Shown here: one piece after another, positions 8,784 through 55,877 of the stretch
Position numbering within the stretch: the first letter of the stretch is position 1
How the letters are laid out: the number at the start of each line of letters is the position of its first letter
Assembly: GCA_016214565.1 (NCBI GenBank)
Contig: JACROE010000002.1
Coordinates: 344,007-408,006, forward strand
Length of the DNA stretch: 64,000 bases
Source of the DNA: Candidatus Kerfeldbacteria bacterium
GTDB taxonomy: Bacteria > Patescibacteriota > Patescibacteriia > UBA10025 > JAHIVO01
Direction: 5' to 3'
Notes under the pieces: generated by a model
What the model was told of the DNA's origin: nothing
Database searches by the model: none
What the model saw: only the letters and a program-made list of their open reading frames with translations
Position numbers and translations under genes: made by a program

Positions 8784-8856
8784 GATTTGACTTATCAAGT
8801 CACCAACAAACCGTTCCGGTATACCCGTGACGGTTTTTGGTTTATACTACCTTCAT

Positions 8857-9513
8857 ATGTACCGATTCGACTTACTCACCATCTTCCCTGACATTTTTGA
8901 CTCGTATCTCGGGGCAAGCATCCTCAAACGCGCCCAATCAAAAAAACTGATCGAGGTGCACGTCCATGATATTCGGAAATTCGCCACTGACAAGCACCAC
9001 ACGACCGACGATCGCCCCTACGGTGGCGGCCCGGGCATGGTGATGAAGGTGGAGCCGATCTTCCGCTGTCTAAAATCTATCAGACGCAAAAGAAAGTCAC
9101 GCATTATTCTGCTGTCGGCAAAAGGAAAGACGTTTGATCAAGCCGCGGCGAAGAACTATGCAAAAAAATACGACCAGCTCATTCTCATCGCGGGGCATTA
9201 TGAAGGCGTCGATGAACGAATCATGAAATACGTGGACGAAGAAGTGTCCATTGGTAATTATATACTCACCGGTGGGGAGCTGCCGAGCTTGAATATTGTC
9301 GACGCTGTATCACGGCTATTGCCCGGCGTCCTGGGGGATGACACCTCATCGCACGACGAATCATTTAGCTCACCCAACTACCGAGAATACCCCCACTACA
9401 CACGCCCCGAAGTCTTCCGTGGTGCACGCGTCCCGCGAGAGCTCCGCTCGGGTAACCACCGAGTCATCGAGGAGTGGCGAAAACGCCATCAAACGTCAAA
9501 ACGTTCGTCTTGA
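8857..9513 (+). CDS. trmD: tRNA (guanine37-N1)-methyltransferase
   Basis: MYRFDLLTIFPDIFDSYL...DDRPYGGGPGMVM...LIAGHYEGVDER matches TrmD. The internal ATG at 8857 fits the usual TrmD N-terminus; the ORF-track start at 8827 adds 10 aa. Confidence 0.85.
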   Translation: MYRFDLLTIFPDIFDSYLGASILKRAQSKKLIEVHVHDIRKFATDKHHTTDDRPYGGGPGMVMKVEPIFRCLKSIRRKRKSRIILLSAKGKTFDQAAAKNYAKKYDQLILIAGHYEGVDERIMKYVDEEVSIGNYILTGGELPSLNIVDAVSRLLPGVLGDDTSSHDESFSSPNYREYPHYTRPEVFRGARVPRELRSGNHRVIEEWRKRHQTSKRSS

Positions 9514-9541
9514 CCTAGTTAGAATCTGATTTCTAACGGGG

Positions 9542-9570
9542 TTGACACTCCGCTACAAATCCTCTACAAT
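9542..9570 (+). promoter_or_regulatory. Near-consensus sigma70 promoter, TTGACA-N17-TACAAT, in the 16S leader region
   Basis: ttgaca at 9542-9547, a 17-nt spacer, then tacaat at 9565-9570, about 420 nt upstream of the 16S 5' end. Confidence 0.5.
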
Positions 9571-9985
9571 AATCCACACCACGATTGGGTGGCAAATATT
9601 TCGCTAAGTTGACATAAAAAACGAAAGGAAATGGCCTAGCGAGCATAATCATTACGAAAACTTCAAGATTTCTTCGTGATATTGTGCATCCTGAGCTACT
9701 CGGGATTTTTTATTTAAACTCTGATGCGAACTATGCCGTGGAGTGCACCTGCGTTCAAGCCAGGATGTCCTCAACAAAGCACGGCGCGCCATCACCATCG
9801 ATTTGGAGTCCGTTGACAACTGAAAAGTGGTAAGAATATTACCAGATTCCACGGTTATTATCACGCGCGAAGAGCGCTGGTAAGGAATCACAACCTGTTT
9901 TGATCACTTCAGGTTAAGAAAAAGTGACATAAGTAATATAGAGCTATTTCATCCGGCAAGGCCGGATGAAACGAATTCTCTTTTT

Positions 9986-11470
<1,485 letters not shown>

Positions 11471-11686
11471 CTAAGGAGTAACTGCTCACAGAACTTCACG
11501 GTTCTGATGGGCACACTGGTCGTCTATCCGCCCGCAAGGGCGAGATACACAGTCGGAACTCTGGCCAATTCTTATCGCTTTTCAGCTGTCACATGGATGC
11601 AAATGAAGACACAGCTCGTATTGTGCTTTTCTCAGGAAACCTGCTAGAATGTGAAGCAATCAATAGCTGTGTTTTTTTATTTACAG

Positions 11687-11810
11687 GGGCGACTAGCTCA
11701 GCTCCGACGCAAGGTCGGAGCCCCGACTTCCCGAAATTCGGGAACGTCGGGGATGGTTACCCGCTCGAACGACTGGCGTCGTCCAGTCGGGCGGGGAGCG
11801 CGTCGCGCTA
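11687..11810 (+). other. Duplicated tRNA-Ile 5' fragment (15 nt) followed by a cluster of GC-rich hairpins
   Basis: gggcgactagctcag at 11687-11702 is identical to nt 1-15 of tRNA-Ile at 11860. It is followed by hairpins ctccgac-gcaag-gtcggag, ccccgac-ttcccgaaattcgggaa-cgtcgggg and cgactgg-cgtcgt-ccagtcg. Confidence 0.6.
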
Positions 11811-11859
11811 GGATAAATAAAAAAACCAAGTGGCCATTTACATACTTTCTGCTGATCGC

Positions 11860-11936: not shown

Positions 11937-11973
11937 TCATTTCCAATCACACGTGTCCTCATTAAAAAATACC

Positions 11974-12070
11974 GAGCCTGCCCATGGGCAGGCGAGGAAA
12001 AGGAGAAATGTGTACGAAGGTGGAGTTGCCTGCTGAAAGCGGGAAACGGAACCGGAGTTACCATTTCGAC
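11974..12070 (+). repeat. Conserved ~100-nt tRNA-upstream element, copy A
   Basis: Hairpin gagcctgcccatgggcaggc, then gaggaaaaggaga, then acgaaggtggagt, a variable hairpin, then aaccggagttaccatttcgacgt ending at the +1 of a tRNA-like 5' half. It shares these blocks with copies at 21651 and 55702. Confidence 0.6.
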
Positions 12071-12114
12071 GTGCCTGGATAGCTCAGTGGTAGAGCGTCC
12101 GCCTCAGGCGGAGC
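12071..12114 (+). other. Orphan tRNA 5' half (acceptor plus D arm only) followed by a hairpin. No 3' half is present
   Basis: gcctggatagctcagtggtagagcg: the D arm tagctcagtggtagagcg is identical to the downstream tRNA-Phe but the acceptor differs. No anticodon or T arm could be folded. It is followed by the hairpin tccgcc-tca-ggcgga. Confidence 0.5.
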
Positions 12115-12145
12115 GTCACCTGTAAAATAGCCTTCTCCTCTCAGC

Positions 12146-12217
12146 GCCGCGGTAGCTCAGTGGTAGAGCGCAGCCCTGAAGAGGCTGGCGTCGTCAGTTC
12201 GATTCTGACCCGCGGCA
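12146..12217 (+). tRNA. tRNA-Phe (anticodon GAA), no CCA encoded
   Basis: Acceptor gccgcgg/ccgcggc, D arm gctc-agtggta-gagc, anticodon arm cagcc-ctGAAga-ggctg, T arm gtcag-ttcgatt-ctgac. Confidence 0.85.
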
Positions 12218-12304
12218 CTGAGAGGAGAAAGAGCGCCTTCTGCTATCCACGGACAACAAAAGCTCTCCAGGCACCACGCCTTCATCAGTTTCATCACCCG
12301 GCGA

Positions 12305-12750: not shown

Positions 12751-12767
12751 TAACATAATAGTAAGCG

Positions 12768-12807
12768 CCTCCGACGGTACCGTCGGAGGAGGCCGCTGGT
12801 TTCCGGC
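12768..12807 (+). repeat. Perfect 22-nt palindrome (cctccgacggt/accgtcggagg) followed by a tRNA-Pro variable/T-arm-like duplicate (aggccgctggtt)
   Basis: The stem ctccgac/gtcggag is the same core as the first hairpin after the tRNA-Ile fragment at 11703-11721. No T-run follows. Confidence 0.5.
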
Positions 12808-12845
12808 AAAGCCGAGATCTCGTCGTCCAAAATAAATCCGCCATC

Positions 12846-16168: not shown

Positions 16169-16272
16169 CAACATCCCTGCATGCCGAGCTTCGGATTTAT
16201 TCCGAGCGAGGCATACAACTAAAGGGAAAAAGAGTAATGAGGAATAACCGTAGGTGTTTCCTCATAACACGT

Positions 16273-21425: not shown

Positions 21426-21492
21426 GGCCACGTAGTCCCGGTCCGTCACCGGACCGAGGATCCTCGATTCGCTCAAGCGAATCGGGACCAAG
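21426..21492 (+). other. Duplicated tRNA-Cys 5' fragment (ggccacgtag) followed by two GC-rich hairpins
   Basis: 10 nt identical to the tRNA-Cys start at 21539. Then hairpins cggtccg-tcac-cggaccg and cgattcgc-tcaa-gcgaatcg. Confidence 0.5.
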
Positions 21493-21538
21493 TCATGCAG
21501 AAAAAACCTTTACAACCAAAAATGAGGCACTCATCCAT

Positions 21539-21613: not shown

Positions 21614-21650
21614 CTTCGATACGTCAGTGCTATTCCTCTCATAACTACTC

Positions 21651-21750
21651 CGAACAAATGCGAAGCATTTGTGAGGATAAGGAGAAATGAAACGAAGGTG
21701 GAGTGACCGATGTGAAATCGGGCACGTAACCGAAGTTACCATTTCGACGT
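21651..21750 (+). repeat. Conserved ~100-nt tRNA-upstream element, copy B
   Basis: Hairpin caaatgc-gaa-gcatttg, then gaggataaggaga, acgaaggtggagt, a variable hairpin, then aaccgaagttaccatttcgacgt ending at the +1 of tRNA-Gly. Confidence 0.6.
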
Positions 21751-21827
21751 GCGGCAGTAGTTCAGTTGGCTAGAACGTCTCCTTGCCAAGGAGAAGGTCG
21801 CCGGTTCGAATCCGGTCTGCCGCTCCA
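21751..21827 (+). tRNA. tRNA-Gly (anticodon GCC), CCA encoded
   Basis: Acceptor gcggcag/ctgccgc, D arm gttc-agttggcta-gaac, anticodon arm tctcc-ttGCCaa-ggaga, T arm gccgg-ttcgaat-ccggt. Confidence 0.9.
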
Positions 21828-21837
21828 TCCCATCATC

Positions 21838-44865: not shown

Positions 44866-45723
44866 ATGACCAACGAGTGCTTCACCATGATGAATCAATA
44901 TCTAGACGTTGTTCGGCAAGACGGCTCAATCCAGGCTGCAAAAAATTACCAAGCCTACCTCCGTAAATTTTTTACCATGACCCAGTGTCAAACGATTAAT
45001 GGCATCACGGCCGAACATGTACAAACATTTCGCAACCAGCTCCAACAAACGAGAACCAGCCGAGCCGAATTAATGCGTACATCGACAATCAACTATCACC
45101 TCATTGCACTGCGTTCATTTATCCGGTACTGTCACGAGCAGGGGATGACCCAACTCACTGAAACGGCTATTCCTCTGCTGCCCGCGGCTCGGCATGCCCG
45201 CCCCTCTATTACCCACTATGACCTAAGTCAGTTTCGCGAAGCGCCACTCACCGCCACAAATGCAGAAATCATCCAGCGTCGAGATAAAGCCTTGATTGAA
45301 TTATTACTCACCACGGGGTTAAAGGTTTCCGAAATTGCTTCACTCAAACGCACCGATGTGCAATCAGGAAAAAATATTCTTGCGATCCGCGGTCTCCGCG
45401 ACACTGTCCGTACCCTCAACCTTACGAAACAAACTCACCATTGGTTGCGCCAATATCTTCAGATGCGGCGCGACGACGCAACCGCACTCTTTGTTCGTCA
45501 TGACAAAGCGCAAAAAACTACCCCAAACGCGCTGACGGCACGGAGTATCCAACGTATTATCAAGCGCTATGCGCTCTCCTCAGGTTTAGGCAGGGACGTC
45601 ACGCCAGAATCACTACGTCAGCAATACGCTAAAATCTTGGCGGCCAATGGTGAAACTATTCAAGAGATCAAAAAACGTTTGGGCCACGCGTCAAGTACTA
45701 CCACTAAGCGATATACAAAATAA
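44866..45723 (+). CDS. Tyrosine recombinase (XerC/D-phage integrase family) with non-canonical active-site residues
   Basis: N-terminal SAM-like domain. The catalytic domain aligns with Xer boxes: ELLLTTGLKVSEIASL (Arg-I replaced by Lys), TPESLRQQYA (HxLRHS replaced by ExLRQQ), LGHASSTTTKRYT (His and the Tyr nucleophile retained). Confidence 0.65.
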   Translation: MTNECFTMMNQYLDVVRQDGSIQAAKNYQAYLRKFFTMTQCQTINGITAEHVQTFRNQLQQTRTSRAELMRTSTINYHLIALRSFIRYCHEQGMTQLTETAIPLLPAARHARPSITHYDLSQFREAPLTATNAEIIQRRDKALIELLLTTGLKVSEIASLKRTDVQSGKNILAIRGLRDTVRTLNLTKQTHHWLRQYLQMRRDDATALFVRHDKAQKTTPNALTARSIQRIIKRYALSSGLGRDVTPESLRQQYAKILAANGETIQEIKKRLGHASSTTTKRYTK

Positions 45724-45734
45724 TTAATACGCAT

Positions 45735-45799
45735 GCCCCTGTAGTTCAACGGACAGAACAAGAGCCTTCTAAGCTCTGGATGCAGGTTCGACTCCTGCC
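45735..45799 (+). tRNA. tRNA-Arg (anticodon TCT), CCA encoded
   Basis: Acceptor gcccctg/cgggggt with two G-U pairs, D arm gttc-aacggaca-gaac, anticodon arm agagc-ctTCTaa-gctct, T arm gcagg-ttcgact-cctgc. Confidence 0.75.
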
Positions 45800-45825
45800 G
45801 GGGGTACCACTCACACGACACAGCT

Positions 45826-50467: not shown

Positions 50468-50547
50468 AATTGCCTAGTCTTCTAGAGGCATTCTTGATTT
50501 TACCGATACACTACACTATACTAATTCAATCTCACTCATGTTGACGC

Positions 50548-50637
50548 GCGCCGTTAGCTCAGTTGGTACCCCTTGTCCGGCAGAGCCGGACCGGGGCCCC
50601 GGCCCGTAAGGGCCAGGGGGAGCAGATCATATTTCAT
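50548..50637 (+). other. Duplicated tRNA-Lys 5' fragment (21 nt) followed by GC-rich hairpins
   Basis: gcgccgttagctcagttggta at 50548-50568 is identical to nt 1-21 of tRNA-Lys at 50895. Then ccggcagagccgg and ggggccccggcccgtaagggccaggggg hairpins. Confidence 0.6.
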
Positions 50638-50904
50638 ATGCACTTTCTCTACATATTACGCAGCAAAGTTGACCACAACCTGTACATCGGCATTGCTGAA
50701 GATGTTGAAAAAAGAATTGCACAGCACAATGCCGGTCGAGTACGATCTACAAAAAGTAGAAGACCATTACAGCTCGTGTACCAACAATCATTTCCAACTC
50801 GCCAAGAGGCTGCTAAACAGGAATGGTTACTCAAACATACGCCCGGTGCCGGTAAGCAAAAACAACGACTCGTTGAAAATTATCGACAATCTATGCGCCG
50901 TTAG
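50638..50904 (+). CDS. GIY-YIG nuclease-superfamily protein (YhbQ/UPF0213-like, 88 aa)
   Basis: FLYILRSKVDHNLYIGIAEDVEKRIAQHNAG is the GIY-YIG motif (Y.L.S....LYIG...D...R...HN.G). Its stop codon lies inside the first nucleotides of tRNA-Lys. Confidence 0.7.
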   Translation: MHFLYILRSKVDHNLYIGIAEDVEKRIAQHNAGRVRSTKSRRPLQLVYQQSFPTRQEAAKQEWLLKHTPGAGKQKQRLVENYRQSMRR

Positions 50905-50967
50905 CTCAGTTGGTAGAGCAGATCCCTCTTAAGGATACGGTCGGGGGTTCGAATCCCTCACGGCGCA
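50895..50967 (+). tRNA. tRNA-Lys (anticodon CTT), no CCA encoded
   Basis: Acceptor gcgccgt/acggcgc, D arm gctc-agttggta-gagc, anticodon arm gatcc-ctCTTaa-ggata (one G-A mismatch), T arm ggggg-ttcgaat-ccctc. Confidence 0.7.
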
Positions 50968-51116
50968 AAGCCTGAATCAGGCCATATCAAAAACCCCTGC
51001 TCAAAATGTCCGCCGCAAAACTTCGGCCGACTCCGCGGGGGTTTTTGCTACCCAAAAAGAAAACCGCCGGTAGAAAGCCACCAGCGGTTAGATTCAAATG
51101 TATTCTCCTATAAAGA

Positions 51117-55173: not shown

Positions 55174-55521
55174 ATGAAAAAAACTATCGCAGAATTGAAC
55201 AAGCAGCATCTCAAAACAGACCTGCCGGACCTCAAGCCCGGGCAAACCGTGGCCGTATACCAAAAGATTATTGAAGGAGAGAAAGAGCGTATCCAAAAAT
55301 TTGAAGGTACCATCTTAGGCCGTAGTGGTGGCAATGGTATCAATGGCACAATCACCGTGCGTAAGATTGCCGAAGGTGTGGGCGTAGAGAAAATATTCCC
55401 TATCAATCTCCCCACCATCACCAAAATTGAAGTGCTGAAGACTGCCCGTGTCCGACGAGCCAAACTCTACTACCTCCGCTCCTACAAAAAGAAATTGAAG
55501 GAAATTAAGGGCAAAAAATAG
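55174..55521 (+). CDS. rplS: 50S ribosomal protein L19
   Basis: PDLKPGQTVAVYQKI.EG.KERIQ.FEG.I...G.G...T.TVRKI..GVGVE..FP..LP.I.KIEVL. Confidence 0.85.
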   Translation: MKKTIAELNKQHLKTDLPDLKPGQTVAVYQKIIEGEKERIQKFEGTILGRSGGNGINGTITVRKIAEGVGVEKIFPINLPTITKIEVLKTARVRRAKLYYLRSYKKKLKEIKGKK

Positions 55522-55639: not shown

Positions 55640-55701
55640 ATCCATTGCCGAATGATCCTCAAGTCATGCTCGGCCATATCCTTTTTCAATCAGAATATCC
55701 C

Positions 55702-55801
55702 GAGCCTGCCCATTGGCAGGCGAGGAAAAGGAGAGTGTGCGCCAAGGGTGGAGTTGCTTTGCGGAAGCAAAGAAACGTAACCCGCGCCGCACAGTCGACG
55801 T
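55702..55801 (+). repeat. Conserved ~100-nt tRNA-upstream element, copy C
   Basis: Hairpin gagcctgcccattggcaggc (1 mismatch to copy A), then gaggaaaaggaga, ccaagggtggagt, hairpin gctttgc-ggaa-gcaaag, ending ...cagtcgacgt directly before G-1 of tRNA-His. Confidence 0.6.
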
Positions 55802-55877
55802 GGTGGCTATAGCACAGTGGTTAGTGCGCTGGTCTGTGGCACCAGACACGAGGGTTCGAATCCCTCTAGCCACCCCA
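55802..55877 (+). tRNA. tRNA-His (anticodon GTG) with an encoded G-1, CCA encoded
   Basis: G-1 plus acceptor gtggcta/tagccac, discriminator C, D arm gcac-agtggtta-gtgc, anticodon arm ctggt-ctGTGgc-accag, T arm gaggg-ttcgaat-ccctc. Confidence 0.85.

Follow-up and report, generated by a model that had tools for sequence, protein, structure and literature searches.

Three copies of one element at tRNA genes

The window, by which we mean the whole 64,000-nucleotide stretch of Candidatus Kerfeldbacteria DNA analysed here, carries on its + strand three copies of a conserved element, at 11964-12072 (copy A), 21641-21750 (copy B), and 55692-55801 (copy C), A-rich tail included. The original prediction had placed three such copies here, each ending exactly at +1 of a tRNA; the placement is borne out, except that copy A runs to 12072, 2 nt further than the end of 12070 first given. 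As predicted, the final T adjoins +1 of tRNA-Gly(GCC) (21751) in copy B, G-1 of tRNA-His (55802) in copy C, and a tRNA-like 5' half (12073) in copy A. ARAGORN and Rfam agree on the start of tRNA-Gly(GCC) (21751-21827) and on that of tRNA-His (55803-55877, with G-1 at 55802). All three copies share one order, which also stood up to re-examination: a hairpin, GAGGA(A/T)AAGGAGA, 9-10 nt, (A)AGG(G)TGGAGT, a variable hairpin, ACG(G/T)AACC, and a terminal ...TCGACGT. This shared order is far beyond chance, and the 13-mer GAGGA(A/T)AAGGAGA occurs exactly three times in the 64 kb. Hairpin 1 differs between copies A and C by a single loop base and is a different hairpin in the same place in copy B, while hairpin 2 is unlike in all three, with compensatory changes, again as first described.

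Each copy is itself preceded by a tRNA gene 35-60 nt upstream, tRNA-Ile for copy A, tRNA-Cys for copy B (36 nt), and tRNA-Leu(GAG) for copy C (60 nt), which places all three within tRNA transcription units; 8 of the 11 tRNAs of the window have no copy. The RNA adjoining copy A (12073-12276, + strand) is a tRNA-Phe-like molecule that keeps its acceptor strands (GCCUGGA/UCCAGGC) with ACCA and its D-arm, and has the hairpin UCCGCCUCAGGCGGA. A reduced variant of the element precedes tRNA-Gly(TCC) at 16184-16272 (+ strand; fold z = -5.6), with domain 1 intact (CC-GA-hairpin-GA-GG), a purine-rich linker, and a domain 2 reduced to a single hairpin ending 4 nt before +1. The covariance models described below do not detect this variant, which is ~90% conserved in a relative (L111, 14681-14772).

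A covarying two-domain fold

The copies fold far better than dinucleotide shuffles (z = -5.2, -6.4, and -6.1; 0 of 200 shuffles as good), and they fold into one shape, two hairpin domains each closed by C-G pairs and a tandem G.A loop. The general form is CC-GA-(hairpin 1)-GA-GG, an AAAA linker, and domain 2, G-GA-(P2, GAAAUG...CAUUUC)-GA-C, with two unpaired nucleotides last. In domain 2 of all copies, P2 leads inward to an internal loop and an invariant GGU/ACC pairing; past a symmetric GNA/GNA loop come helices P4 and P5, capped by a GNRA-like loop. In copy A, the A-rich 5' tail AAAAAATA (11964-11971) corresponds to an A/T-rich tract found before CCGA in most of the 17 copies considered below. 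The predicted domain 1 follows at 11972-11997 (helix P1, the tandem G.A loop, and hairpin 1 at 11976-11993), and the fold and the alignments assign 11998-12072 to the linker, domain 2, and the 3' dinucleotide. Domain 2 of this copy is closed by the pair G12002-C12070, with its tandem G.A loops at 12003-4 and 12068-9, then P2 and the inner elements just listed, and its final dinucleotide is GU (12071-72). Copy B likewise ends 2 nt past its closing C21748.

Compensatory changes are already present at 14 of 30 pairs among the three window paralogues. Across 17 distinct copies from eight sources, 91.8% of alignment cells pair and double changes occur at 24 of 30 pairs; domain 1 taken separately has double changes at 8 of 9 pairs and 95% of cells paired. 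The same 17 sequences contain 112 compensatory cells, compared to 12-21 when pairing partners are slid by 1-3 columns, and none of 500 shuffles reaches 112. The alignment behind these main counts was fitted to the model, and was therefore cross-checked with MAFFT and RNAalifold, which independently of the model recover the same helices, with compensatory changes at 21 of 29 pairs. The + strand has 16 G.U pairs compared to 5 A.C pairs; this excess, together with the tandem G.A and GNRA-like loops on that strand, points to the tRNA-sense strand as the one that folds.

P2 and the GGU/ACC pairing are conserved in sequence and not merely in pairing, as are the loop nucleotides GAGG-AAAA-GGAG, GGUGNAG, and ACGNAACC. 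Conserved loops, P2, and GGU/ACC together suggest a specific recognition surface. The proposal that the element is a structured RNA rather than random spacer, with a covariance model and a scan of relatives named as its check, has thus fared well: the scan found further copies, and the larger alignment shows strong covariation.

Occurrence in related genomes

A covariance model built from the window copies, R1, scores the copies at E values of 1e-19 to 1e-29, and no other score above 21 bits turns up in ~690 kb of unrelated loci, a clean separation of true copies from background. The window has a bacterial 16S rRNA, and its L19 protein is 100% identical to that of a Candidatus Kerfeldbacteria MAG, which makes it part of a CPR/Patescibacteria genome. 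We report a further 14 distinct copies, spread over seven relatives (genomes or metagenome contigs), which were reached through L19 synteny and one metagenome pattern scan, with ~20-kb stretches of each read. Copies precede tRNA-Lys and tRNA-His in L050, tRNA-His in each of L054, L080/L098, and L089, tRNA-Gly-GCC in L064, and, at full size, tRNA-Gly-TCC in L061; L070/L114 has four copies and L116 two. The Cys-element-Gly(GCC)-Leu(TAA) order around copy B is orthologous in L064, and the Leu-element-His order around copy C is orthologous in L050, L054, L080/L098, and L089.

An exact-pattern scan of 185,579 GTDB species genomes, among whose representatives the source species is apparently not included, gave 47 matches, none of them scored by R1; these are chance matches within EF-Tu, FtsH, alanine dehydrogenase, and other coding sequences. 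Two pattern scans of viral contigs yielded 10 loci and zero covariance-model matches. An Rfam search had also been proposed as a check, and the element matches no family: at gathering thresholds, Rfam 15 (4227 models) retrieves only 16S rRNA and tRNAs from the window, and a permissive search (E up to 10) with copies A and C and the four L070 copies returns inconsistent matches of 10-25 bits, far below threshold. The element has not been described before. It is a structured RNA of ~105-115 nt that is confined to a CPR/Patescibacteria subgroup around Candidatus Kerfeldbacteria, and at least eight genomes conserve its fold. Neither a nuclease nor a transposase or integrase gene was found directly beside any copy, nor any candidate gene for a partner, and the 64-kb window contains no RNase P RNA or protein gene.

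Two kinds of junction with tRNA sequence

The junction with tRNA is obligate: at 16 of 16 distinct loci the element adjoins tRNA sequence, 13 times at tRNA +1 and three times within the T-loop of a partial tRNA. In 9 of the 13 copies at +1, the closing GAC is followed by 2 nt, and in two (L054 and L116) by 5 nt; two decaying copies (L050 at tRNA-His, and L070 #1) sit at tRNA +1 with 2 nt past their degenerate ends. Position -1 is mostly U. At these 13 of 16 loci the element has the placement of an RNase P leader, on the same strand and contiguous with +1 of a tRNA with normal acceptor stem and T-arm.

The three T-loop copies (two in L070/L114, one in L116) end in ...CGACGC, joined to position 58 of a partial tRNA-Met, with the same 2 nt (GC) between the closing pair and A58 in all three. 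Each belongs to a larger unit that reads, in order, the reverse complement of the T-loop and T-stem 3' part, an A-tract, the element, AAUCCCACC...CCA, and then a copy of the downstream spacer of the intact tRNA; tRNA positions 58 to the 3' end thereby sit in a hairpin whose 5' arm is the T-loop/T-stem reverse complement. This hairpin vehicle also carries unrelated GC-rich structured inserts in L050, L054, and L116. The units stack in tandem, and relatives with 71% identical Lgt proteins have different ones. Partial repeats of the att type, an intact tRNA plus a direct partial copy, are found at the three T-loop copies, and no part of the tRNA is duplicated at the 13 copies at +1. No integrase was found in the T-loop-copy loci.

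Patchy presence, relocation, and decay

The element comes and goes at single tRNA genes. The Leu-His junction lacks it in L097 and in L099, where tRNA-Leu and tRNA-His are only 2 nt apart, a spacing which implies that the RNase P of this group copes with structure near its cleavage site. tRNA-Lys has the element in L050 and none in the window, behind the same promoter, which in the window is followed by a 5' tRNA-Lys fragment, a GIY-YIG open reading frame, and the intact tRNA. tRNA-Gly(TCC) has the reduced variant in the window, kept in L111, and the full form in L061. Copy A, in the Ile-Phe spacer, is 83% identical to the L050 copy at tRNA-Lys, 5' flank included, even though the two lie at different loci. 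The tRNA-His copies of these two genomes are orthologous and yet only 52% identical; the Ile-Phe spacer of L111, which is from the same genome as L050 and is the locus equivalent to that of copy A, has no element. Moreover, conserved loops or P1 have been lost in the copies before tRNA-fMet (L070 #1) and tRNA-His (L050). The patchy presence, the 83% compared to 52% identity, and the degenerate copies indicate a module that is dispensable in cis, relocates, and decays. The suggestion of a lineage-specific tRNA leader cassette, possibly mobile, is supported by these copies in relatives, which lie at tRNAs and are patchy and relocated.

Other insertions and partial tRNAs in the lineage

The tRNA genes of these genomes show further irregularities. 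Inside the tRNA-Phe-like RNA that adjoins copy A, an intact tRNA-Phe (12146-12218) is nested within a 12-bp stem. A nested tRNA-Phe is also found in L111 (9689-9980); the 11-12-bp stem around the inner tRNA has a wholly different sequence there (TTCTCCTCTCAG/CTGAGAGGAGAA in the window genome, CTTTATCATGT/ACATGATAAAG in L111), and the outer acceptor stem of the window differs from the inner one by paired changes. The nested arrangement suggests a maintained RNA architecture.

At window 50494-50968, a promoter (TTGATT-17-TATACT) is followed by a 5' fragment of tRNA-Lys broken in the D-loop (50546-50568), GC-rich hairpins, and an 88-aa GIY-YIG nuclease reading frame (50638-50904; Pfam E 6e-17) that runs at its end into the intact tRNA-Lys(CTT). 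A GIY-YIG reading frame also lies directly ahead of tRNA-Lys in L099, and the arrangement resembles a homing-type insertion bringing along its own replacement for the tRNA 5' part. A tyrosine recombinase gene (Phage_integrase, E 1e-23; window 44866-45809) ends 12 nt before tRNA-Arg(TCT).

Fragments of the 5' part of tRNA-Ile, tRNA-Cys, and tRNA-Gly, broken in the D-loop or the anticodon loop, are found 60-160 nt ahead of the intact gene, with GC-rich hairpin inserts in between (window 11686-11859 and 21426-21538; L111 9358-9441 and 14773-14876; L112 10650-10750 and 19200-19480). L111 additionally has a tRNA-Ile anticodon-arm fragment with a 42-nt hairpin in its loop; break-points are in tRNA loops throughout. 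Units of the T-loop kind with other structured inserts are found downstream of intact tRNAs in L050 (10800-10945), L054 (10625-10755), L116 (6600-6710), and L114 (11700-11760), and the inserts of L054 and L116 have a common 3' end, ...GACGAGCUYGGGGGAGRAG. These inserts may be further families of RNA or DNA elements. The hairpin UCCGCCUCNGGCGGA recurs at window 12098-12112, in L054, and in L070/L114. Downstream of tRNA-Pro, window 12751-12845 has a perfect hairpin, CCTCCGACGGTACCGTCGGAGG, and after it a direct repeat of that tRNA's variable-loop/T-stem 5' segment, GGAGGCCGCTGGTT.

Two features of gene order (window 8827-11470 and 55174-55521) may also be mentioned. The 16S rRNA gene is followed by tRNA-Ile and the 23S rRNA gene is absent within the window, i.e. 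the rRNA operon is unlinked, as reported for many CPR. The genes trmD and rplS, usually neighbours, are 45 kb apart both in the window and in the relative L111/L050.

Comparison with known systems

Ordinary bacterial pre-tRNA leaders and spacers are short, unstructured, and unconserved. The element resembles them in lying on the tRNA strand within tRNA operons, ending at +1 (G-1 for tRNA-His) with position -1 mostly U; it differs from them in being a conserved, covarying two-domain fold of ~100 nt whose last helix reaches to -3. In eukaryotes, the 3' ends of MALAT1 and MEN-beta are made by RNase P at a downstream tRNA-like structure, such as mascRNA; in the dicistronic tRNA-snoRNA genes of plants, which Kruszka et al. 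reportedly described in 2003 (cited in PMC12045711), the passenger RNA is downstream and is released by RNase Z. In both cases, a functional RNA shares its transcript with a tRNA-type structure and has an end that is set by a tRNA-processing enzyme and protected by structure. Both are eukaryotic, and for the element such processing is a proposal; neither resembles the element in sequence or structure, and the mascRNA model matches only the tRNA itself.

A designed RNase P riboswitch (Ender et al. 2021, PMC7897497) is similar in that the tRNA-proximal leader forms the 3' strand of a structured leader, a sequestration that controls access of RNase P, but it is synthetic and contains a theophylline aptamer, whereas the element has no known ligand or alternative fold. 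Group I introns are common in tRNA genes of Patescibacteria, where they occupy the anticodon loop, exceed 200 nt, and self-splice (PMC13011429). They share with the element the phylum, a patchy distribution, and a structured RNA at tRNA genes that is, or in our case would be, removed by RNA processing; the element is instead ~100 nt and is located either outside the mature tRNA or within a partial copy's T-loop, and this size and position, with no model match, exclude a group I intron. Integrative elements that target tRNA genes and leave partial tRNA repeats, such as tycheposons (bioRxiv 10.1101/2020.12.28.424599), resemble our loci in the partial tRNA copies that flank an insert beside an intact tRNA, in tandem insertion, and in degenerate remnants. 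They differ in that our units are ~200-350 bp, have no integrase, and have break-points also in the D-loop and anticodon loop, and in that the inserted cargo here is a covarying hairpin RNA or DNA.

T-box leaders, too, are structured leaders tied to tRNA, and the UGG of the element could in principle pair with NCCA. T-boxes, which have a specifier loop and an antiterminator, lie upstream of aminoacyl-tRNA synthetase or amino-acid genes; in our case there is no RF00230 match, the downstream gene is always a tRNA, and no loop triplet tracks tRNA identity or anticodon. In copy B, GGUGGAGU (21695-21704) has 8 bp of complementarity to the 3' end of tRNA-Gly (21819-21829, GCUCCA plus 2 nt), a pairing used in the joint minimum-free-energy fold; L064 and the His and Lys copies do not preserve this complementarity.

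Several further known classes do not fit. Models of self-cleaving ribozymes (hammerhead, twister, twister-sister, pistol, hatchet, HDV-like, and hairpin) give no match at E<10, and the hammerhead core CUGANGA...GAAA is missing, the flanks of hairpin 1 being CCGA...GAGG. For IS200/IS605 palindromes (PATE) or TnpB/IscB omega-RNA, no TnpA or TnpB reading frame lies near any copy in the loci examined, the two domains are unrelated in sequence, and the left flanks are A/T-rich with no fixed oligonucleotide common to them. A MITE does not fit either: the ends AAAAAAUACCGAG... and ...CAUUUCGACGY are not inverted repeats, and the +1 copies have no direct repeat at their junctions. A small reading frame with an SD-like AAGGAG and an AUG (GAGGAAAAGGAGAAAUG) is broken between copies by 1-nt indels right after the AUG, which is itself GUG, ACG, or AUA in some copies; by hand translation the peptides range from 5 to about 28 aa or more and are unrelated. 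TIGR-Tas or box C/D-like guide RNAs (PMC12045711) have an unrelated architecture, and the G.A loops of the element are symmetric 2x2 loops and not K-turns.

Interpretation

Our preferred reading, held tentatively and at a little short of an even chance, is that the element is a tRNA-sense leader RNA, cut from its tRNA by RNase P and left with a helix-protected 3' end, which spreads among tRNA genes like an insertion. It would be transcribed as a pre-tRNA 5' leader or inter-tRNA spacer. RNase P, whose RNA is present in CPR genomes generally (PMC8172020), would cut at tRNA +1, usually 2 nt past the closing pair, and so free the element with both ends in helices, as a self-contained small RNA that would resist exonucleases. 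Such a cut leaves a near-flush, protected 3' end, which would give a reason for the near-constant spacing. The invariant purine-rich loops (three of the G.A type, GGUGNAG, ACGNAACC, and AAAGGAG) may form the surface by which a trans-acting partner recognizes the RNA. By whatever mechanism it moves, the module would be gained, lost, relocated, and left to decay at single tRNA genes as an insertion is, and it may be tolerated there because normal tRNA processing removes it, as happens with the self-splicing introns of CPR tRNA genes.

Some points count against this leader reading. By the standards of E. coli and B. subtilis, a leader paired up to -3 would be expected to impede RNase P (PMC7897497), though the basal G-C pair and two G.A pairs may breathe. 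Hairpins of single-stranded DNA from the same strand would yield equal covariation. And the three T-loop copies, the main observation outside the leader model, have no whole tRNA after them, so that RNase P release does not explain them; they suggest a process at the level of DNA or of end joining.

There is also a DNA-level alternative that we consider unlikely, in which the fold forms in single-stranded DNA, as in folded attC/attP hairpins or IS200/IS605 ends, and serves as the end or recombination site of miniature integrative or transposable elements targeted to tRNA genes. The element is indeed always the right-hand end of the inserted DNA, adjoining host tRNA sequence, and the T-loop units have a composite build (reverse complement of the T-loop/T-stem 3' part, cargo, position 58 to the 3' end, and spacer copy); their tandem stacking and differences between relatives are as in tRNA-targeted integrations (bioRxiv 10.1101/2020.12.28.424599). 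A GIY-YIG nuclease is found in other tRNA-gene insertions here and a tyrosine integrase adjoins tRNA-Arg, and hairpin 1 of copy B contains GCGAAGC. That mini-hairpin is very stable in DNA. Yet no transposase or integrase lies beside a copy, terminal inverted repeats, a target-site duplication, and a conserved target oligonucleotide at the 5' junction are all absent, and the two domains are dissimilar, in contrast to the left- and right-end hairpins of IS200/605 elements. Unpaired purine loops that are conserved, like the GNRA-like loops, would moreover be more usual in RNA, and every copy is in sense orientation within transcribed tRNA units.

The helix near the cleavage site can also be read as functional. 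We think it improbable that the element is a cis-regulatory switch in which the basal helix of domain 2 (leader -3 to about -12) limits access of RNase P and so tunes tRNA maturation, a folded state that a ligand or protein might stabilize through the conserved loops. [quoted passage not shown] A switch is hard to reconcile with the tRNAs served, since His, Gly-GCC, Gly-TCC, Lys, Met, and fMet show no obvious logic and the same tRNAs lack the element in close relatives, or with decaying copies that persist ahead of essential tRNAs and three copies that precede just a tRNA 3' fragment. No alternative, mutually exclusive pairing was found.

Quite improbable, in our estimate, is a module independent of RNase P, either a self-cleaving ribozyme or the site of a "ruler" endonuclease, cut a fixed 2 nt past the closing pair, which would make the tRNA 5' end or the 5' end of the tRNA 3' fragment. 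It would make sense of a distance from closing pair to junction that is fixed in most copies, and of the same GC before A58 in all three T-loop copies, where there is no RNase P substrate, and the two-domain architecture with conserved internal loops would suit it. However, L054 and L116 have a spacing of 5 nt and the reduced variant one of 4 nt, Rfam ribozyme models give no match even at E<10, and to our knowledge no class of self-cleaving RNA cuts at its very 3' end unless it pairs with downstream sequence. With a nucleolytic ribozyme the tRNA would bear a 5'-OH, and RNase P is kept in CPR genomes.

A transcription signal, either a promoter of the downstream tRNA or an antisense terminator made of hairpin 1 and a T-tract on the minus strand, is scarcely credible: an A-rich tract lies upstream of many copies, and hairpin 1 of copy A followed by TCGGTATTTTTT on the minus strand has been called terminator-like, but that T-tract is missing in copies B and C, so that the minus-strand terminator is confined to copy A, prediction gives no sigma-70-like site within or beside any copy, covariation spans the whole 100 nt including domain 2, and G.U pairs exceed A.C pairs, with the G.A loops becoming C.U mismatches on the minus strand. 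The earlier suggestion of a tRNA promoter is thus unsupported, and most copies moreover lie inside tRNA operons behind another tRNA.

Taken more broadly, there is some chance, though a small one, that the element is active instead of a passive passenger, either as a natural switch or "ruler" in the leader, by which RNase P is controlled or replaced in making tRNA 5' ends, or as the structured end of a new miniature mobile element. In the latter case it would join precisely to natural tRNA ends, at +1 and at position 58 in the T-loop, and would, if real, account for the many loop-broken partial tRNA copies in this lineage.

The landscape in which the element lies is unusually dynamic, with nested tRNAs, partial tRNAs broken in their loops, and GIY-YIG and hairpin insertions, and the element could show how selfish elements colonize the essential single-copy genes of minimal genomes without killing their hosts. 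Its clean separation from background by the model makes the model usable for annotating CPR genomes, where non-coding RNA is almost unexplored and where structured RNA classes with covariation support and no assigned function are rare leads. The element is coupled to tRNA maturation in organisms with a reduced, divergent RNase P, and that physical coupling makes it a natural test case for the effect of leader structure on tRNA 5' processing.
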